From sequence record MZ189261.1: a stretch of DNA of 64,000 nucleotides. One strand, 5' to 3'. Positions 20,379 to 30,805 of the stretch are shown piece after piece; the stretch's first letter is position 1, and each line of letters starts with the position of its first letter. A program made the position numbers and the translations under genes. Source of the DNA: Escherichia phage S143_2. A model generated the notes under the pieces. It saw nothing but the letters and a program-made list of their open reading frames with translations, was not told the DNA's origin and ran no database searches.

Positions 20379-20408
20379 ATAGTATCACACATCCATGTGT
20401 TTGTAAAC
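20379..20408 (-). promoter_or_regulatory. Early promoter (GTTTAC / TACTAT)
   Basis: Pattern inside 3' end of alt, upstream of ORF 20056..20349. Confidence 0.45.
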
Positions 20409-22495
20409 TATCCTTGGACAAATTTAAACGGAACTGATTCTAAATCCATTAAAGATGCTAACAATTTCAATCCTTTAGGAGCACTAGTTTTTTCTACAAA
20501 TGAGGAGAACGATATCGGCTCATCTGATTCGATTTCACCCGTCATAGCAACCACCTCACCTGTTTCCATGAGAACATCACCGTCGTAAATGACAGCTTCG
20601 TCCAACTGGTCTGAGGACATGACTTCAGCTTGAATAAATTTAAGGTTGGATTCTAAACCTGCACCAGTGTCAGATGACGCATCTGTAATTTTATTTATCT
20701 GCAAGAGAATGCCTCTAGGCAAAATAATTTCTTGCTCATTAGGGTGATTACTCAACTGTCCAGGATAAATCACGTTAACTTTATGGGCGCCATCAATAGC
20801 CCATCCAACGTTAACACGGATTTGGTCTGGTGCATGCATAGCTGTTCTTACTTGACTAGGAGAAATAGTAACACCTTCGTCATTATTGTCAATGTTAAGC
20901 TCTTTGCGAACTTCTTCAGGAGCAAGTCCAAGGGCAACGTTCTCTTTAAACCCACCAAAAATAATAGGAGCTAGTGAAGTAGAAACATAGTTTCTGAAGT
21001 AGAATACCTTATTTTTAACCATTGCTTCGTAAATAGGCATTCTGATAGACTGGGCTCTATATAACGTTAGTCCTTCAGGTAAACGGTCTCCATTTAAAAA
21101 CGCTGAATCAAGACCATCAATAGCGCGTTTAACTTCATCTTCATCTGCAACATCGTAAAAATCTGGTTTATAACGACCTAACAACATATTATTGATATCC
21201 GTATACGCAGAAGAGGCATATTCACGAATAGCTCGTTTTTCAGCAACAGAGTATTGATTAGGGACCCGATTCATTGTTATATTAAAGGTGCCTCTAGCCG
21301 ATTCTCGTGCATAAGTATACATCACATTAGACAAGAACGCTGATTTACGTTGTTTCCAAGTTCTTTCAGATACTTCAGCTAAAACGTCGTCGGGCAGTTG
21401 GAAATTATCACGTCTAAAATCTTCAAACCATTCGTCTTTAATAGAGTCTGCAATTTCATTTGCAGCTTCGACAAAAGCAGCTAATGCTTTAACAGATGTT
21501 GTTTTTTCAGTTTTAATTTTCTTAGCAAACTTTTCTAAAGTTGGCTTAATAACACTACCATAAGAAACTTCATCAGCAAATCTAAAGGATTCATCAATAC
21601 GATTATAAATCTTATTTTCGATATCAGCAACTAAAGTGCCTTTTGCTGTGGACGATGCTTGGGCTAGTACGATTTCATATGCTTCAGGAAGTAATTCGGC
21701 TGTAGCTGGGCCACTAACTTCTTTAGCAGAATTTTCGTATTTCTGGAATAACTCACCTTCTTGGCGGTCAGCTTCTAAAGATTGACTTGCTGCAATAGCA
21801 CGACGAGAAATTTTAGTACGAGCAATAACAGGCTTATCTTTACGTTTTTCTTCTACCGCAGCAATAGAACCAGCGATAGCCGTTTCTTTGGTGACCATTT
21901 CGCCAGTCTTTTTACTCACATAAACTTCGCCAACATCAGAATCTACTTTCGTGTACAACTCTGTGTTAATGTTAGGGATGCCTTTAATATCTTCAATGTT
22001 GGCATTTTTACGAACCATCATCACATAGGTGTGTTTACCTGTGAATTGATACATTGCCGACAATACTTTAAAACGACCACCGGTTTTAGTAGAAACTAAA
22101 CGAGCAAGAAGAGTTTGAAGCTGCTGTCCGCGTCCTTTCAATTTCTTGGTAGGGAATCGGAATAGAACTGCATCCATACGAAGAGCTTTAACCTGTTCAT
22201 ATACTGTATTGAAAATGGTGTTGATTGCATCAATAGGAGCAGGACCAAGGCCATTTTTCAATTCAGCGAGATTGCCCTTTTCAGATAGACTCATAATAAC
22301 AACATGAGCGTATTTGTCGCCAAGTTTAACTTGTTTTACAGCATCACCTTCGGAAAGGTAAGAGAATAAGCGAACTACGATGTTTGTATCGATATCACCA
22401 ATTTTCCAGACTTGTGGAACTTTAGCTTTAGGGTTCAAATTGACGACAGGAAGACTGCCTTCAGATTCAAACACTTCATTTAATTGTTCAGACAT
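20408..22495 (-). CDS. alt: Alt, packaged mono-ADP-ribosyltransferase
   Basis: 695 aa (T4 Alt 682 aa); C-terminal ART fold motifs R (LYRAQ), STS (YVSTSL), E-x-E-like (NEQEIILP). Confidence 0.9.
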   Translation of the reverse strand: MSEQLNEVFESEGSLPVVNLNPKAKVPQVWKIGDIDTNIVVRLFSYLSEGDAVKQVKLGDKYAHVVIMSLSEKGNLAELKNGLGPAPIDAINTIFNTVYEQVKALRMDAVLFRFPTKKLKGRGQQLQTLLARLVSTKTGGRFKVLSAMYQFTGKHTYVMMVRKNANIEDIKGIPNINTELYTKVDSDVGEVYVSKKTGEMVTKETAIAGSIAAVEEKRKDKPVIARTKISRRAIAASQSLEADRQEGELFQKYENSAKEVSGPATAELLPEAYEIVLAQASSTAKGTLVADIENKIYNRIDESFRFADEVSYGSVIKPTLEKFAKKIKTEKTTSVKALAAFVEAANEIADSIKDEWFEDFRRDNFQLPDDVLAEVSERTWKQRKSAFLSNVMYTYARESARGTFNITMNRVPNQYSVAEKRAIREYASSAYTDINNMLLGRYKPDFYDVADEDEVKRAIDGLDSAFLNGDRLPEGLTLYRAQSIRMPIYEAMVKNKVFYFRNYVSTSLAPIIFGGFKENVALGLAPEEVRKELNIDNNDEGVTISPSQVRTAMHAPDQIRVNVGWAIDGAHKVNVIYPGQLSNHPNEQEIILPRGILLQINKITDASSDTGAGLESNLKFIQAEVMSSDQLDEAVIYDGDVLMETGEVVAMTGEIESDEPISFSSFVEKTSAPKGLKLLASLMDLESVPFKFVQG

Positions 22496-22551: not shown

Positions 22552-22739
22552 TAATCCACAATCGGGAGCAAAGTACGATAAACTTCAAAATTAGGGCCTT
22601 TTTCGTACCCATTAACGTTATCTACGAAAACCCGATACGAATTTTCATTAGGAAAATCTAATATAATCTGAGAGCAAGAGGTGGAAACATCTCCACCATC
22701 CTTCTTAGCTACAATAACTGTTTCTAAATAAGCTTTCAT
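22551..22739 (-). CDS. Hypothetical protein, 62 aa
   Basis: ATG at 22739 overlaps the gene 30 stop (TAATG coupling); longer ORF-track N-terminus rejected. Confidence 0.45.
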   Translation of the reverse strand: MKAYLETVIVAKKDGGDVSTSCSQIILDFPNENSYRVFVDNVNGYEKGPNFEVYRTLLPIVD

Positions 22740-24232
22740 TATAAACCTGTCTGGGACCACGGTCCAAATACGTCTTCAAACGAATCCGCTTCTGTTTTAT
22801 CAAAACGGAACCCTTTAATAATTGGAAGGAAAATACCTACAGTACCTTCACGGCCTTTAGAATGAACCCAACCATTACATTCACAATCAGCGATACGTCC
22901 AATTAATTTACCTTCACGAGCTTCGGTCATTAATCGTTCACGGTCTAAATCATGACGCTCGTCTAAAGGAATAAGAACCTTTACACCGTCAACTGTTTTA
23001 TGAGTTGTATCTTTAAACCCTGAACCACAATCGGTTGTAATACGACGACAACGTGATACGAGTTCGACACCACCTAATTTGTTAGGGTCTTTAGAGTGTT
23101 CATAGTATCCTACAACTTCTAAAGCGATATCAATAACTTCTTTAAATTTAATTAGGTTCTTAGAGCGTTTGTTTTCCCAATATGAATCACGGTTTTTAAG
23201 GATAATACCTTCAAGACCTTGGTCAACATATTTTTTATAAACTACTTTAGCTTCGTCAAGATTACGAACTAACTGATTTTCAATTGGTTCAATTCGCTTA
23301 AAGCCTTCAGCCATATTTTCAAGAGCAGCAAAACGAACATCGTATTTCTGACCTTTAATTTTGCCGTCAGAATAGACTTCATCTAAAGGAACATAGTCCC
23401 AGGCTTGAAGAACCATACCTTCCGCTTCTTTAGGAGAAATAGTCCCTTGAAGAGATTTATTTGCTAAACCATTTGAAGTGCTACGGTCTGCAACTTGTAC
23501 TTCTTCGGATTCTTCATTATCACCAAATAAGAACGACAGGTCATTTCCTGAGCTCACAGCCTTTTTAATATCGAATGAATGATAAACTAATTCACCGTCG
23601 ATTAAAACCCCATTAGGGTGTCTTTCACGAGCTTCTTTAGTCATTTCCATTAGTTCATCCGCTAATAGAGTAAGACCATGGTATTCGTTACCAGCACGAG
23701 AAAAGAATTGAACACCATCATCGCGAACTTCAGCGAAACAACGAGCACCATCTGCTTTTAATTGGGCAAATGCGGGCCATTTAATATTTTTAGTAATCAA
23801 TTTCTCATCATATGCAGATGCTAACATCTGTGGTTGCAATTGAATAAGTCCAGGCCACACCTTATTCGCGATAGACACTGAAGCACCTACTTCAAGGTCG
23901 CGCATCATTACACGACGAAGGACTTCTACATCATCAGGTTTACCGTCAGCGATATAACCCATGAGCTCTTTAATTGCGGCATTACCGGTGAGTTTACGAG
24001 TGGCTAATGTGAACTCAATAAAATCCAACATGTCATCTAATTCAAGAAGACCATATGCTTGGGACCTTTCACCCGGCCCCGGCCATTTCTTAATATAATA
24101 CTGGATACCACGTGCATATGTTAAACGATACACACGTTCAAGTAATTTGTTGTCCTTATTTTTCTTAAGGATTTCTTGTTTTGTTTTAGTAGAACCGATC
24201 GCAGCTATTTGGTTTAAAATATCTAAAATCAT
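22739..24232 (-). CDS. 30: ATP-dependent DNA ligase gp30
   Basis: 497 aa; N-terminus and adenylation motif KADGAR match T4 DNA ligase as remembered. Confidence 0.95.
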   Translation of the reverse strand: MILDILNQIAAIGSTKTKQEILKKNKDNKLLERVYRLTYARGIQYYIKKWPGPGERSQAYGLLELDDMLDFIEFTLATRKLTGNAAIKELMGYIADGKPDDVEVLRRVMMRDLEVGASVSIANKVWPGLIQLQPQMLASAYDEKLITKNIKWPAFAQLKADGARCFAEVRDDGVQFFSRAGNEYHGLTLLADELMEMTKEARERHPNGVLIDGELVYHSFDIKKAVSSGNDLSFLFGDNEESEEVQVADRSTSNGLANKSLQGTISPKEAEGMVLQAWDYVPLDEVYSDGKIKGQKYDVRFAALENMAEGFKRIEPIENQLVRNLDEAKVVYKKYVDQGLEGIILKNRDSYWENKRSKNLIKFKEVIDIALEVVGYYEHSKDPNKLGGVELVSRCRRITTDCGSGFKDTTHKTVDGVKVLIPLDERHDLDRERLMTEAREGKLIGRIADCECNGWVHSKGREGTVGIFLPIIKGFRFDKTEADSFEDVFGPWSQTGL

Positions 24233-24498
24233 TTGATGTCCTCGATTTTGGTTACGGTTCTATTATAAGCCACTTCATCTAGAAGCGATTTCAGCGTTTT
24301 CTGATAAGTGGTAATCCATTTACCGAGTCCTTCAACATAGTATTCTGAAATGTAGATGAACCCTTGTTCAACACACTCTTTAAATATTTCCGCGTCTTTT
24401 ACTGAACGAAACAATGGCCAGTCTCGAAAGAACATGTTAACGTGACCGTAGTCACGCGTTGTGTTTTTGCCATCTGTAATATCATGAACTACAAACAT
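24229..24498 (-). CDS. Hypothetical protein, 89 aa (30.1 position)
   Basis: ORF with 4-nt overlap onto ligase start. Confidence 0.5.
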   Translation of the reverse strand: MFVVHDITDGKNTTRDYGHVNMFFRDWPLFRSVKDAEIFKECVEQGFIYISEYYVEGLGKWITTYQKTLKSLLDEVAYNRTVTKIEDIK

Positions 24499-24510: not shown

Positions 24511-25323
24511 TCAATTTGTAGACCAAGTCCATTTGGACGAATCTAAAGGAAAGTTTTGAATCGTCCACCATGGCTGCATATCAGTCGGTCCTGGGGTTCG
24601 CCAGGTATACGGATTCGACGGAGCGCCAATTTGATTAGGCCATGCACCTGGACTTGTTGTACCAGATTCTTTAAGCAAATCCGCCAATCGTTTTAAAAGG
24701 TCTTCACGATCTGAATCTGAATTATGCTCGGGTGGAACCAAACGAGATTCAATATCATCCCACGTGTGTACACGTTGTGCAGTACGAGGAATGGCATCAC
24801 GTTCACCACGAGCCAACCAATAAATCGGTACATTAAGAATTTCTGCTGCATGGTCACAGTGATGAGCTAAATCGTCAACGTAACAAATCACGTTATATTT
24901 TGTTTTAGCTAGTTCGAATAATTGTTCCTTTGAAGAATCATGACCACACATCATTACTTCAGAGAAAGCGCCTGGGAACAAAGCATTCAAATTAAATTGT
25001 CTATTCAATCGAGCATCAATTGAATCACCTAGCGCCGTCACGGCTACAAAATTATAGTCTTCTTTTAGTTTATTGATAACTCGAAGAGCATCCGAATAAG
25101 GCGCTAAGTAACGAATAAAATCAGAGCTATTATATTTTTCTATCAATTGTTTACCAAGGTTATCGTCGGTATTGAACAGTTTACCAGGAGAAATAAATTT
25201 TTCGTCCTGAATCATTTTTAAAATATGTTCTAATGGAAGATTATATTTTTGGGCAAAATAAGGAAGTCCAGATTGCCAGCTTAAACATACACCATCAATA
25301 TCAGTCAAAATAGTAGGTTTCAT
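24511..25323 (-). CDS. HAD-superfamily phosphatase-like protein (30.2 position)
   Basis: 270 aa; N-terminal DxDGV motif (ILTDIDGV) and later DD motif (YVDDLAHH) typical of HAD hydrolases. Confidence 0.6.
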   Translation of the reverse strand: MKPTILTDIDGVCLSWQSGLPYFAQKYNLPLEHILKMIQDEKFISPGKLFNTDDNLGKQLIEKYNSSDFIRYLAPYSDALRVINKLKEDYNFVAVTALGDSIDARLNRQFNLNALFPGAFSEVMMCGHDSSKEQLFELAKTKYNVICYVDDLAHHCDHAAEILNVPIYWLARGERDAIPRTAQRVHTWDDIESRLVPPEHNSDSDREDLLKRLADLLKESGTTSPGAWPNQIGAPSNPYTWRTPGPTDMQPWWTIQNFPLDSSKWTWSTN

Positions 25324-25787
25324 AAAGAGTCTCTTAATAGGTTTAACACATCAATAAATTCAGCTTCGGTTAGTATTGTATCATCTTTTGTTAGACCGCT
25401 AGCCATGCTGTGCTTCAAAATTTTTCCTTTAGAGGCTTGTAAGGCATCACGAAACCCCTTGTTTTGGATCGCGGCTTCAAAATATGCATTTGTGTATAAT
25501 TCTTTCCACGCTTCGGAGTATCTTGAAAATGGAACTCCTAACCAGAAGAGAGTTCCACGGTCCTGAGCTCTTGCATAAGACCTTCCAGCTTGCTGTGCAG
25601 CCAATCCAGACATCCCAAATATGCGTCTTTGTTGTTCAACATTTTTCACCTTACATCCTTGGAGAAATCCTTCAAGTCCTCCGAATTGAATACCATCCAT
25701 AACGAAAGGCCATTGAGCAAAGTTACTTAATGCACATGACGGCCATTTGAAATTGCTTCTTATTTCTAATTCAGACATCTTTAACAC
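25320..25787 (-). CDS. NADAR/YbiA-like (DUF1768) protein (30.3 position)
   Basis: 155 aa; motif LSNFAQWP...DG closely resembles YbiA FSNFAAWP...DG, plus EGFLQGCK vs EHYFQAQK. Confidence 0.55.
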   Translation of the reverse strand: MLKMSELEIRSNFKWPSCALSNFAQWPFVMDGIQFGGLEGFLQGCKVKNVEQQRRIFGMSGLAAQQAGRSYARAQDRGTLFWLGVPFSRYSEAWKELYTNAYFEAAIQNKGFRDALQASKGKILKHSMASGLTKDDTILTEAEFIDVLNLLRDSL

Positions 25788-25989
25788 TTATAATTTCAAC
25801 ATCAGCCCAATGGCCATATCCAGGTATACGGTCTTCGATAGATAAATTTCCGTCATTTTTAGGCATTTTAATTGACGTAACGTATGGTTCTAAACGGTTT
25901 TCTGCATAATACGGAAAAACGTCTGTTACACGATAAGTAACTTCGATCATTTCCGTACCAAACAATTTCTGGATTAATTTATTCAACAT
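25771..25989 (-). CDS. Hypothetical protein, 72 aa
   Basis: ORF in 30.x early region, overlapping neighbours. Confidence 0.4.
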   Translation of the reverse strand: MLNKLIQKLFGTEMIEVTYRVTDVFPYYAENRLEPYVTSIKMPKNDGNLSIEDRIPGYGHWADVEIISVKDV

Positions 25990-26176: not shown

Positions 26177-26230
26177 ATTTTTCCACTTACTAAAGAAATC
26201 ATTATACTCTAATCCGTCCTTGGATGTAAA

Positions 26231-26848
26231 CTACTTAACGAAATTAATTTCTACCGGATGAACAACAGGTTGAGCAGTGATATATTGGGTAATTGCTTTC
26301 AAGACTAGAGCTTCAGACCCAGGATTTTTCTCAACGAATTCACGTGCTTGGTTATGAGCTTCAAGTTCACTTAGTAAACCACTTCGTTGGCATCCACGGT
26401 CTTGAGTACCCTGTTCAGATAAAAAGACGACGATGTATTTTTCATCATCGTCATACGGTTTAGACGGTTGAGCAAATGTTCCTTTACTTCCAAAAGGAGA
26501 GTTATGACGCCACATCACGCCGTGAGGAGTTTCAACCTTCGTATATTCGTGCGGGCCGTTTTTCTTAGTTTCTTGATGTGGAACTTTGTAGACCTTAGGG
26601 TTAGGACATTCAATAAAATGCTCATCTAAATCGGTCGAGAATATTAAAGTAAAACAATTACTAAATTTACCAACACCCGCCTGATAAATTTTACCTTCAG
26701 AAGTTCTAATTTCACAAACTGAGCCGGCATCAGTAACTTCTAAAACTTCAAAAGGCTCGATAAGGTCATATGAGAACATGTTTTTAAGGCGTGGAGTAAT
26801 ATCCCCATTTTTAAAATTCATTTTATAAAAAGTATTAACTTTAAACAT
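26231..26848 (-). CDS. Hypothetical protein, 205 aa
   Basis: Long ORF; GC-hairpin (GGGAGC-UUCG-GCUCCC) immediately 5' of its RBS. Confidence 0.5.
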   Translation of the reverse strand: MFKVNTFYKMNFKNGDITPRLKNMFSYDLIEPFEVLEVTDAGSVCEIRTSEGKIYQAGVGKFSNCFTLIFSTDLDEHFIECPNPKVYKVPHQETKKNGPHEYTKVETPHGVMWRHNSPFGSKGTFAQPSKPYDDDEKYIVVFLSEQGTQDRGCQRSGLLSELEAHNQAREFVEKNPGSEALVLKAITQYITAQPVVHPVEINFVK

Positions 26849-29242: not shown

Positions 29243-29813
29243 AAAAGTTTCGGATTTGTTCCCAATTCAGAGAACGAAGATTATTACGAGAGTACTGAAT
29301 TACTTCAATACCGGCTTGTTTTAGAATGTCTGCCCAATTTTCAGGAGATCTGTCATATAATTCTGCGTATACAACCTTTTTAATACCTGACTGCGTAATA
29401 GCTTTAGTGCAATCAGGACATGGAGAAAGCGTCGTATATAACGTAGCACCTTCAATAGAATTACCTTTACGAGCTGCAAACAAAATTGCATTCAATTCTG
29501 CATGGATTTCATTATTAGCAGACCATGCACTATGAGCGGCCCGATGTTCTTTAGCCAAAACAAAATTATCTGCCCGTCCAAATGCTGTAGTGCCTTCTTT
29601 ATGTCCAGCAACGATGACCGGACTTGGTTTATTCTTCAACCAACCGTTTTCGGATGCATGTTCGCAACAGTTTGTACCACCTGAAGGAGAGCCATTATAA
29701 CCTGTAGAAATAATGCGTCCATCTTTTTCAATGACTGCGCCAACTTTCCATGAACAACATTTTGATTCTTGAGAAATCAGATATGCAATCTGAAGGTATG
29801 TGCTAGCTTTCAT
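29232..29813 (-). CDS. cd: dCMP deaminase
   Basis: 193 aa (T4 Cd 193 aa); zinc-deaminase motifs HAE and PCxxC (SPCPDC). Confidence 0.9.
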   Translation of the reverse strand: MKASTYLQIAYLISQESKCCSWKVGAVIEKDGRIISTGYNGSPSGGTNCCEHASENGWLKNKPSPVIVAGHKEGTTAFGRADNFVLAKEHRAAHSAWSANNEIHAELNAILFAARKGNSIEGATLYTTLSPCPDCTKAITQSGIKKVVYAELYDRSPENWADILKQAGIEVIQYSRNNLRSLNWEQIRNFCGE

Positions 29814-30805
29814 TATTGAACCTTATTAATATAAGTTAACAGCTCTTTAGTTTGTTCCCAACTGATGCACGCATCGGTAATGGAAACGCCATAGGACATA
29901 TTATCAGAAATTTTTTGATTTCCTTCATGTAGGAATGATTCTATCATAATTCCTTTGACCAAATCATTAGCTGCTAAATTTTTACCAATACCAATTTGAT
30001 TGCTATAATACCCATCAGCGTTTGCGTGGCTACAGTCAACCATTACATAATGATTCAGACCTAATGCACTTGCTTTGTTAGAAGCTTCTTGAATATCAGA
30101 AGAATGATAGTTCGGGCCGTTAGTCCCGCCACGCAATACGATATGCGTATTCTGATTACCTTCAGCTTCAACAATGCCTACAGTACCATCGACGTCCATA
30201 CCCATATACCGATGAGGCCAGGCGGCACTATACATCGCGTCTGTAGCTACTTTAATAGAACCATTGGTTGCGTTCTTGAAGCCTACGCACATCGGTAGAC
30301 CTGAAGCAATTTCACGATGTGTCTGACTTTCAGTCGTACGGGCGCCAATAGCAACCCATGAGAAAATACCAGAAAGATACTTAATCGTGAATGGGTCTAA
30401 TACTTCAGTTGCTAATGGAAGTCCCATACGTAGAAGTTTACGACACAATGTTCGTGCAACTATAAGACCGTGGTTCATATCAAAACTTCCGTCAAGATAT
30501 GGATCATTTACAAGACCTTTCCAACCTACGGTAGTTCGAGGCTTTTCAAAATAAACGCGCATCACTAACAGAACATTAGGAAGACGAGTTTGAAGTTCAG
30601 CCAGACGTTTGCCGTATTCAACAGCAGCAATAGGGTCATGAATTGAACAAGGACCTACAACAATAAGTTTGCGTGGGTCTTCACCGTTCATAATCGAATT
30701 AACTTGTTCGCGATGAGAAGCCACTTGTGATGCGTAAGCTTCCGACAAAGGAATAATCTCAGCCAGTTCTTTTGGAGAAATAAGTTTTCTGACGACAGGT
30801 AACAT
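29813..30805 (-). CDS. 3-deoxy-D-arabino-heptulosonate-7-phosphate (DAHP) synthase, class I (AroG/AroF/AroH-like)
   Basis: 330 aa; conserved blocks VVGPCSIHD, MRVYFEKPRTTVGWKG, AIGARTTESQ, GFKN, IVLRGG, DCSHAN, ESFLHEGNQ, SITDACI colinear with E. coli AroG; stop overlaps cd start (TAATG). Confidence 0.85.
   Translation of the reverse strand: MLPVVRKLISPKELAEIIPLSEAYASQVASHREQVNSIMNGEDPRKLIVVGPCSIHDPIAAVEYGKRLAELQTRLPNVLLVMRVYFEKPRTTVGWKGLVNDPYLDGSFDMNHGLIVARTLCRKLLRMGLPLATEVLDPFTIKYLSGIFSWVAIGARTTESQTHREIASGLPMCVGFKNATNGSIKVATDAMYSAAWPHRYMGMDVDGTVGIVEAEGNQNTHIVLRGGTNGPNYHSSDIQEASNKASALGLNHYVMVDCSHANADGYYSNQIGIGKNLAANDLVKGIMIESFLHEGNQKISDNMSYGVSITDACISWEQTKELLTYINKVQ

Follow-up and report, generated by a model that had tools for sequence, protein, structure and literature searches.

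Gene 30.3 (adfN) and gene 30.2, encoding a putative NT5C-like HAD phosphatase, are probably independent early genes of a T4-like phage

Organization of the locus

Two ORFs were analysed in the window (the whole 64,000-nucleotide stretch, from a Mosigvirus-type T4-like phage), which a sequence-only reading had described as encoding a HAD-like phosphatase and a NADAR/YbiA-like protein at the positions of T4 genes 30.2 and 30.3. Both were present, at 24511-25323 and 25320-25787, on the minus strand, which that reading had left unstated, and the T4 positions proved correct, the window proteins being 70% (30.2) and 97% (30.3) identical to T4 gp30.2 and gp30.3. With a phrog_420 match for 30.2 (E 8e-78) and a PF08010 Phage_30_3 match for 30.3 (E 3.8e-69; 231 bits, cutoff 36), these sequence-based gene identities are beyond chance. 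From upstream to downstream, the features are as follows:

26201..26230, minus strand: promoter-like site of the T4-early type (GTTTACA-N18-TATAAT, 11/12 matches), upstream of 30.5
25771..25989, minus strand: gene 30.4, 72 aa, overlapping the start of 30.3 by 8 nt
25779..25787, minus strand: nine extra bases in a GTG-started reading of the 30.3 ORF
25320..25778, minus strand: gene 30.3 (adfN), 152 aa from the ATG at 25778
24511-25323, minus strand: gene 30.2, 270 aa
24739..25323, minus strand: HAD core of gene 30.2 (residues 1-195), NT5C-like C1-cap HAD phosphatase
24511..24738, minus strand: C-terminal tail of gene 30.2 (residues 196-270 and stop)
24229-24498, minus strand: gene 30.1, downstream of 30.2
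22739-24232, minus strand: ligase gene (lig; PF01068, E 1.9e-26)
20408..22495, minus strand: alt, 695-aa ADP-ribosyltransferase (PF03496, E 4.1e-28)

The GTG-started reading of the 30.3 ORF (25320-25787) comprises 155 aa, and its extra bases are probably untranslated: the T4 gene is annotated, and its residues are numbered in the literature, from the ATG at 25778, and counting from this codon puts the catalytic residues exactly at E36 and K43. Genes 30.3 and 30.2 overlap in the ATGA at 25320-25323, and the candidate promoter, judged from its sequence, probably drives a packed unit formed by 30.5-30.4-30.3-30.2-30.1-lig. The T4-annotated internal ORF 30.3' was discarded as a gene, since a stop codon interrupts it in the window.

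Gene 30.3 encodes an intact AdfN

T4 gp30.3 was named AdfN (anti-DarT factor NADAR) by Johannesman et al. (Nat Commun 2025, PMC11825919), and was described as a NADAR-superfamily DNA ADP-ribosylglycohydrolase that is necessary and sufficient for DarTG1 resistance. The window protein is colinear with T4 AdfN over the 152 aa, with no truncation and no frameshift, and its predicted C-terminal helix (about residues 138-151) is intact. RB69 has a frameshifted adfN copy of its own, an inactive allele that does not contain the C-terminal helix, and ectopic adfN restores this phage on DarTG1 (PMC11825919).

The NADAR signature reported from the letters alone, LSNFAQWP...DG, was located at residues 17-29. 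Direct Pfam and NCBIfam scans of gp30.3 yielded no match to NADAR (PF08719) at E values up to 10, and a single-sequence search against PDB sequences gave no match. A family profile built for gp30.3 matched YbiA across the SNF...E...K motif (E 0.0028), and one homologue (P0181) carries both PF08010 and PF08719, bridging the two families. The AF2 model of gp30.3 was of high confidence (pLDDT 93.6, pTM 0.88), and a Foldseek search against the PDB ranked YbiA 2b3w (E 4.3e-5, TM 0.67), PnNADAR 8bau and the G. lovleyi NADAR 8bat as the top three matches, the fourth having an E value >3. This YbiA/NADAR alpha+beta fold, together with the profile reaching YbiA, bore out the proposed superfamily membership.

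Comparison of the active sites aligned S18, N19, F20, E36 and K43 with the YbiA motif SNF...SEHYFQAQK; these five residues and H123 were invariant in 49 gp30.3 homologues. The codons of the three catalytic residues, all verified, are:

25671-25673, minus strand: E36 of AdfN
25650-25652, minus strand: K43 of AdfN
25410-25412, minus strand: H123 of AdfN

E36 and K43 of T4 gp30.3 are the equivalents of the catalytic Glu/Lys pair E43/K50 of PnNADAR, and the substitutions E36A and K43A weaken rescue by AdfN (PMC11825919). The third catalytic residue, in the last strand, differs between subfamilies, phage proteins having His there, BC4488 Asp and YbiA Glu (PMC11125620, PMC11543638); in the AF2 model H123 directly follows the predicted last strand (120-122). 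With H123 placed by conservation and by this predicted strand, the modelled gp30.3 is a member of the NADAR superfamily, within the phage His-type gp30.3 subfamily.

Gene 30.2 encodes a putative HAD phosphatase related to 5'(3')-deoxyribonucleotidases

The 270-aa gp30.2 begins with MKPTILTDIDGV, and the HAD motifs that had been noticed in its ORF correspond to D8, D10, G11 and V12 (motif I) and to the later pair D150-D151. The complete set of motifs is:

25294-25302, minus strand: motif I, D8/D10
25036-25038, minus strand: motif II, T96
24928-24930, minus strand: motif III, K132
24871-24876, minus strand: motif IV, D150/D151

Among 34 homologues, D8, D10, G11, K132, D150 and D151 were invariant and T96 nearly so; W16 was also invariant, and D8, D10, R108 and K132 remained invariant in 66 distant relatives (21-40% identity). 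The predicted fold was confident and confirmed a Rossmannoid HAD core with a cap, supporting the reading of this ORF as a HAD-like phosphatase with intact catalytic motifs. No single-sequence match at a curated Pfam or NCBIfam threshold was obtained for gp30.2: HAD_2 scored 16 bits, below its cutoff of 23.8 (E 0.013), and the only NCBIfam match was TIGR01428 (E 0.093). Thus, the NADAR and HAD assignments of the two ORFs failed at curated thresholds, but were recovered by profiles or structure.

The Pfam family with the largest number of matching gp30.2 relatives was NT5C (PF06941), found in 7/34 close homologues (best E 0.0029) and 30/65 distant ones (best E 4.2e-10); the window gp30.2 itself did not match this profile. 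An extended gp30.2 profile aligned end to end with 3bwv from S. epidermidis (E 3.4e-5), and its other matches were mostly nucleotide monophosphatases (Sdt1/SSM1, mdN, XMP phosphatase). A single-sequence search against PDB sequences returned only a weak match to 2jao, and the best Foldseek match was the 5'(3')-deoxyribonucleotidase family (cdN 2jao/2i7d, mdN 1mh9, 3bwv). The 5'(3')-deoxyribonucleotidases (NT5C) are the nearest characterised relatives of gp30.2. Literature searches found nothing on gp30.2, and nothing specific to its family among publications on phage deoxyribonucleotidases.

The identity to T4 gp30.2 was visibly higher in the core of about 195 aa, and the tail diverged from that of T4. 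This tail is predicted as one helix (about 203-221) followed by a low-confidence Pro/Trp-rich stretch, with pLDDT falling to about 50 from residue 225. Homologue lengths lay between 196 and 347 aa, the tails varying in sequence and length and being unalignable or missing in many of them; this variable, disordered element is possibly a docking element.

AdfN activity is directed against DarTG1

Published experiments with the T4 protein settle much of the proposal that the NADAR protein counters DarTG-like systems. Deletion of adfN leaves T4 and T2 unable to form plaques on DarTG1, and AdfN is without effect on DarTG2 (PMC11825919). In vitro, guanosine-ADP-ribose was hydrolysed and thymidine-ADP-ribose was not, and a His-type phage subfamily was recognised (PMC11125620; the subfamily also in PMC11543638). 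Since the activity is specific for guanine-ADP-ribose, AdfN counters only DarT1/DarTG1; the proposal therefore held, by experiment on the T4 orthologue, for the guanine-modifying DarT1/DarTG1, and failed for thymine-ADP-ribose and DarTG2.

Two observations qualify this picture. T4 AdfN gives no protection from DarT1 in uninfected cells (PMC11125620, PMC11825919), and it is fully effective only in T-even infections, where another T-even protein may be needed (PMC11825919); in view of the latter, the mechanism proposed below may be incomplete.

Genes 30.2 and alt are neutral on DarTG1

In the published T4 Tn-seq data, insertions in 30.3 were lost on DarTG1 (log2FC -7.25), a phenotype seen only when DarTG1 was present. 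Gene 30.2, with 71 insertion sites, was neutral on DarTG1 (log2FC -0.12, p 0.61), and alt was neutral as well (log2FC -0.01). T4 30.2 had no phenotype in the reference library, in the first resampling comparison, on DarTG1 or in LB vs M9, and the data consequently give no positive clue to its role. The only other gene significantly depleted on DarTG1 was 30.4 (log2FC -1.79, adjusted p 0.014), which is most simply explained by polarity of the insertions on 30.3.

These results bear on the idea that AdfN has its missing T-even-specific helper in gp30.2, which would either process the released ADP-ribose or recruit AdfN to phage DNA, making the two genes a single counter-defence module. In its favour, the ATGA overlap points to translational coupling; the 30.3-30.2 order is retained in Tequatrovirus, Mosigvirus and Acinetobacter phage 133; each gene is found in about 1,450-1,500 phage records, whose hosts are distributed almost identically for the two; and the possible need of T4 AdfN for a T-even partner would be accounted for. 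Yet the neutrality of 30.2 next to the strong loss of 30.3 speaks against it, as do the ability of purified AdfN alone to de-ADP-ribosylate DNA in vitro (PMC11825919, PMC11125620) and the kinship of gp30.2 with nucleotide monophosphatases, rather than with ADP-ribose-processing enzymes. The Tn-seq data by themselves exclude only a non-redundant role of 30.2 against DarTG1.

The neighbourhood of the NADAR gene varies among phages

The genomic context was surveyed in the 71 informative IMG/VR NADAR loci, namely those with enough flanking sequence. A 30.2 homologue was adjacent to the NADAR gene in 14/71 and within 2 kb in 5/71, and in the other 52 no such homologue occurred over a distance of at least 2 kb, and usually 4 kb, which is a further argument against gp30.2 as a helper. 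The survey revealed no conserved alternative partner beside gp30.3-type NADARs, whose neighbours fell into 44 clusters downstream and 46 upstream. The 30.3-30.2 adjacency was confined to part of the Tevenvirinae; within this group the distant Acinetobacter phage 133 retains the 30.3-30.2-lig order, indicating that the pairing is old, and given that age a redundant or conditional link between the two genes may still exist. The T4 Tn-seq data, together with the failure of most related loci to keep the two genes adjacent, led to the rejection of 30.2 as a T-even-specific helper of AdfN; an essential partnership of 30.2 with AdfN is ruled out, and the shared module was considered very improbable.

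A gp30.3 homologue (P0145), found on contigs reaching about 420 kb, was considered as possibly bacterial and was discarded as such: its context on a 308-kb contig looks like that of a jumbo phage, with many small unannotated ORFs and with genes for NUDIX and Thg1 proteins in the vicinity, and it lacks a 30.2 homologue.

The sequence-only reading had also placed Alt, downstream on the same strand, in a cluster with the NADAR and HAD genes for making and possibly removing ADP-ribose adducts. The position was right: alt lies about 3.3 kb from adfN, on the same strand. From this arrangement a writer/eraser pair could be imagined, in which the NADAR protein tunes or reverses ADP-ribosylation by the phage Alt (and ModA/ModB), and not host-made DNA adducts. 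However, all tested NADARs, including T4 gp30.3, act on guanine-ADP-ribose in DNA (PMC11125620, PMC11543638), Alt modifies host proteins, among them the alpha subunit of RNA polymerase, and the 30.3 phenotype requires DarTG1, a condition under which alt is neutral. The ligase gene, unrelated in function, and 30.1 separate adfN from alt in one tightly packed early operon; alt is on the opposite strand in Acinetobacter phage 133, and the NADAR gene of Jiaodavirus KpV477 lies in a tRNA cluster. The cluster was not supported, given the Tn-seq neutrality of 30.2 and alt and the wide variation of the NADAR gene neighbourhood; the writer/eraser pair was given a marginally smaller chance than the shared module, and Alt is regarded as a syntenic neighbour outside AdfN function.

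Interpretation of the locus

The best explanation, to which we assign a probability of about 85%, is that the locus holds two independent early genes, adfN (30.3) and a gene for an NT5C-like HAD phosphatase (30.2), with Alt unrelated to either. The adjacency of 30.3 and 30.2 would then be due to T4-type operon packing, not to one shared pathway.

In the proposed mechanism, the host DarT1 toxin would ADP-ribosylate guanines in replicating phage DNA, and AdfN would hydrolyse the N-glycosidic guanine-ADP-ribose bond using E36, K43 and the phage-type H123. Its action would free ADP-ribose and restore a replicable template, allowing the phage to grow on DarTG1 hosts. In agreement with this, purified AdfN strips ADP-ribose off DarT1-modified DNA (PMC11825919). 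This mechanism has been demonstrated with the T4 protein, whose identity to the window protein is 97%, and by orthology it would extend to the window phage. For gp30.2, the most likely activity would be dephosphorylation of a (deoxy)nucleoside monophosphate, or of a close analogue, via a D8 aspartyl-phosphate.

What such a phosphatase would serve was also weighed. It could be a counter-defence or detoxifying nucleotidase directed at a host system that E. coli K-12 lacks, where it would destroy either a toxic analogue of a nucleotide or an immune signal derived from nucleotides; this would explain both the wide conservation of the gene and the lack of a laboratory phenotype. Roughly 1,400 phage records and a family of 1,197 representatives show no variation in the catalytic motifs, the phage has no need of the gene in K-12 (LB, M9 and with DarTG1), the gene sits in an early-gene block that holds a proven counter-defence gene, and the fast-evolving tail of gp30.2 is typical of host-interface proteins. 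A role in shaping nucleotide pools would, however, give identical data, and the counter-defence role was considered unlikely. Slightly less probable still is a broader proposal in which gp30.2 would be a second, unrecognised counter-defence enzyme and not a housekeeping nucleotidase: the NT5C-like phosphatase would destroy the toxin or signal of a non-K-12 defence system, with the tail targeting a host or phage partner, or would work downstream of AdfN at a step that a host enzyme could perform as well.

The function of a phage NADAR as an anti-DarTG factor was already known, having been demonstrated for the T4 orthologue in 2024-2025, and the window therefore adds only one more intact adfN allele. 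For 30.2, a widely conserved gene (about 1,400 phage genomes), the present analysis provides a placement beside the 5'(3')-deoxyribonucleotidases. Regarding the T-even dependence of T4 AdfN, 30.2 and alt are removed as non-redundant candidates, so that, besides 30.3, a Tn-seq signal on DarTG1 is left only for 30.4, the small gene upstream.

Comparison with known systems

The closest known system is T4 gp30.3/AdfN itself, which shares with the window protein the length of 152 aa, the slot between 30.4 and 30.2, the residues E36, K43 and H123, and the C-terminal helix. The two differ by five conservative substitutions (K11R, M56L, E89P, I120V and M125I, window to T4), and their phages by genus, Mosigvirus in the window and Tequatrovirus for T4; nothing in the sequences suggests a functional difference between the two proteins.

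The DarG1-type NADAR antitoxins (BC4488 family; E. coli C7, G. lovleyi NADAR 8bat) and YbiA (2b3w) have in common with AdfN the fold and the SNF...E...K motif, and guanine-ADP-ribose glycohydrolase chemistry is common to T4 AdfN, the DarG1-type NADARs and YbiA. Unlike the DarG1-type antitoxins, AdfN is encoded by an orphan gene with no adjacent DarT, and it belongs to a Pfam family of its own (PF08010), the NADAR family being PF08719.

The 5'(3')-deoxyribonucleotidases share with gp30.2 the HAD core, a small helical C1 cap and the DxDGV motif I, followed by an aromatic residue and SGL (W16-Q-S-G-L in gp30.2, aligned with F-E-S-G-L in cdN). The identity is only 14-19%, gp30.2 itself scores below the NT5C threshold, and the gp30.2 family differs from them by an additional C-terminal tail that is variable and can reach about 150 residues.

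Two other T4 anti-DarT factors, AdfM (the Tk.4 macrodomain, anti-DarTG2) and AdfA (61.2), complete the comparison. AdfM is, like AdfN, an orphan antitoxin-like hydrolase; AdfM counters the thymine-modifying DarT2 and AdfA binds DarT1, with folds and targets unrelated to those of AdfN, and both are encoded outside the 30.2/30.3 locus.

Gene order and content of the 30.3/30.2 region

The window belongs to a T4-like coliphage, and a 2-kb stretch around genes 30.3 and 30.2 showed 98.6% identity to Shigella phage phi25-307 and 96.7% identity to Escherichia phage mogra, classified as Mosigvirus. All the genes of the region lie on the minus strand and match the T4 order (pseT ... cd ... 31 ... 30.5, 30.4, 30.3, 30.2, 30.1, ligase, a small ORF and alt), with the ligase and Alt confirmed by Pfam. 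Genes 30.3 and 30.2 are joined by an ATGA overlap, and 30.1 overlaps the ligase gene by 4 nt. The two ORFs described in the sequence-only reading and their quoted motifs are real and occupy the T4 30.2 and 30.3 positions, as orthologues with 70% and 97% identity; together with the gene order and the ligase and Alt matches, this confirmed the observation.

Features of the region
24511-25323, minus strand: gene 30.2, HAD-like protein of 270 aa
24511-24738, minus strand: C-terminal tail of gp30.2
25320-25787, minus strand: ORF of gene 30.3 (adfN) read from the GTG at 25787; ATG at 25778 gives 152 aa
25415-25642, minus strand: counterpart of the T4 internal ORF 30.3' (75 aa), in an alternative frame inside 30.3, where a stop codon leaves 34 aa
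25771-25989, minus strand: gene 30.4, with an 8-nt overlap with the adfN start
26230-26201, minus strand: strong T4-early-type promoter-like site (GTTTACA-N18-TATAAT) upstream of 30.5
26231-26848, minus strand: 205-aa ORF, phrog_17531, no Pfam family, at the position of T4 gene 30.6 (95 aa)
29813-30805, minus strand: class-I DAHP synthase gene (330 aa) between cd and cd.2, in the slot of T4 cd.1

The 205-aa ORF is a lineage-specific replacement of T4 30.6. The DAHP synthase gene, whose product opens the pathway to the aromatic amino acids, seems to serve this group of phages as an auxiliary metabolic gene; its mogra counterpart is annotated as phospho-2-dehydro-3-deoxyheptonate aldolase. The stop within 30.3' in this phage argues that it is not a conserved gene.

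Gene 30.3 encodes AdfN

The 30.3 product was identical to its T4 orthologue at 147 of 152 residues, counted from the ATG on which both the annotation of T4 and the residue numbers in the literature are based, and carried the motif L17-S-N-F-A-Q-W-P ... D28-G29. In the Pfam search proposed for assigning families, 30.3 matched PF08010 (Phage_30_3; E 3.8e-69), and no direct match to NADAR (PF08719) was obtained up to E 10. The NADAR link was probed in three ways, and the fold proved to be the one proposed. A profile of 49 homologues matched E. coli YbiA over the SNF...E...K motif (E 0.0028); one homologue carried PF08010 and PF08719 together, and several were named YbiA/DUF1768 by JGI; and the AlphaFold model (pLDDT 93.6) had only three meaningful PDB matches, all of them NADARs (YbiA 2b3w, Phytophthora 8bau and Geobacter lovleyi 8bat). 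E36, K43 and H123 were invariant across the 49 homologues. Since the allele in the window is full length and retains all the catalytic residues, it is almost certainly functional, judging from orthology.

The function of 30.3 is settled by the literature on the T4 orthologue. The gp30.3 subfamily of de Souza and Aravind forms the His-type branch of NADARs (PMC11125620, PMC11543638), and purified T4 gp30.3 hydrolysed guanosine-ADP-ribose and not thymidine-ADP-ribose (PMC11125620). Johannesman et al., who named the protein AdfN, reported that T4 and T2 lacking adfN formed no plaques on DarTG1, that AdfN stripped ADP-ribose from DarT1-modified DNA, and that DarTG2 was unaffected; expressed AdfN rescued RB69, in which a frameshift has cost the phage's own protein its last 15 residues, and E36A and K43A weakened this rescue (PMC11825919). 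An independent T4 transposon screen (HIDEN-SEQ preprint) again showed the loss of 30.3 on DarTG1. The suggested anti-DarTG role thus stands for DarT1 and guanine, but not for DarTG2 and thymidine.

Damaged adfN copies were found in many natural T4-like phages (database matches P0103-P0106, P0112-P0116, P0152 and P0201), some with a frameshift into the 30.3' frame and others with in-frame deletions that fuse gp30.7, gp30.8 or another N-terminus to the C-terminal half of gp30.3, removing E36 and K43. Like the RB69 frameshift, these copies suggest that the counter-defence gene has been lost repeatedly.

Gene 30.2 and alt in relation to adfN

The sequence-only reading had joined the NADAR and HAD proteins and Alt into a cluster making and possibly removing ADP-ribose adducts. 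The HIDEN-SEQ supplementary table (control vs DarTG1) was consulted, its DarTG1 sheet being recognised from the depletion of 30.3 and its place before Data S8.

T4 transposon insertions on DarTG1
30.3: log2FC -7.25, adjusted p 0
30.4: log2FC -1.79, adjusted p 0.014
30.2: log2FC -0.12, p 0.61 (71 sites)
alt: log2FC -0.01, not significant
adfA (61.2), another anti-DarT factor: log2FC -0.34, not significant

Gene 30.2 was also non-essential and neutral in LB vs M9. The neutrality of 30.2 and alt on DarTG1 rules out a non-redundant partnership of either with AdfN. Besides 30.3, only 30.4 was significantly depleted, which is either a polar effect or marks 30.4 as a candidate for the T-even factor on which AdfN reportedly depends (PMC11825919).

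Neighbourhoods were compared across 80 IMG/VR loci with a gp30.3-type NADAR, 71 of which had enough flanking sequence. Gene 30.2 was directly downstream in 14 of the 71 (close T4 relatives and one at 47% identity) and within 2 kb in another five, while 52 lacked it over a distance of at least 2 kb and mostly 4 kb; downstream neighbours fell into 44 unrelated clusters. In the Jiaodavirus Klebsiella phage KpV477 (L088, 5001-5450) the NADAR gene lies inside a cluster of tRNA genes, a long way from both 30.2 and the ligase gene, and Acinetobacter phage 133 retains the 30.3-30.2-lig order with alt on the opposite strand. Genes 30.3 and 30.2 each occur in about 1,450-1,500 phage records, which reflects the common Straboviridae gene pool and not linkage.

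The chemistry also differs: AdfN acts on guanine adducts made in DNA by a host toxin (PMC11125620), and Alt on host proteins (PMC9503650), and earlier literature had already remarked that T4-like NADAR genes lie close to ARTs (PMC9503650). The Tn-seq neutrality of 30.2 and alt, the variable neighbourhoods and the differing chemistry speak against the functional cluster, which we regard as unsupported.

A 308-kb metagenomic contig, apparently from a jumbo phage, carries a gp30.3-type NADAR (L083, 5001-5468) with NUDIX and Thg1-like genes within 4-5 kb, a context unlike that of T4 and in keeping with the links to NAD/RNA repair described for NADARs of phages.

Gene 30.2 encodes a putative NT5C-like phosphatase

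The identity of gp30.2 to its T4 orthologue was visibly higher over a core of about 195 residues. Its motifs D8-I-D10-G-V12 and D150-D151 were found, and single-sequence searches gave sub-threshold matches only (HAD_2, E 0.013; mouse cdN 2jao, E 0.12). The 99 source-named matches in the first database search were T4-like phage proteins, except for one Acinetobacter baumannii record, and homologue lengths ranged from 176 to 347 aa. Across 34 aligned members D8, D10, G11, K132, D150 and D151 were invariant and T96 nearly so; these residues constitute the four HAD motifs. The model had high confidence for residues 1-190 and low confidence from about residue 225 onward. Its top Foldseek match was the cytosolic 5'(3')-deoxyribonucleotidase 2jao, with 3bwv in third place and many cdN/mdN entries further down, which bore out the HAD fold.

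With a profile, 1,197 relatives were recovered from 1.84 billion representatives. Pfam NT5C was matched by 30 of 65 distant ones sampled, at E 4e-10 in the best case, and generic HAD models by 12; a profile including distant relatives aligned end to end with 3bwv (E 3.4e-5), its remaining matches being mostly nucleotide monophosphatases. From the motif conservation, fold, NT5C relatives and extended-profile matches, gp30.2 is read as a predicted active NT5C-like phosphatase, probably acting on a nucleoside monophosphate or similar small phosphoester. W16, which is invariant, falls in the alignment on the aromatic residue after motif I in cdN; in mdN structures that residue stacks on the base, and we take this as a lead only.

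The C-terminal 75 residues diverge strongly from T4 and are missing in many homologues. This tail is Pro/Trp-rich. A GIEYL..RPT motif, which T4 gp30.2 and several homologues from Klebsiella and Citrobacter phages carry close to the C-terminus, is absent from it, and the tail is a fast-evolving, optional module.

The new content is modest, the anti-DarTG1 activity being already known from the 97%-identical T4 protein; it consists of the exclusion of 30.2 and alt as AdfN partners with a non-redundant role and the placement of gp30.2 beside the NT5C nucleotidases.
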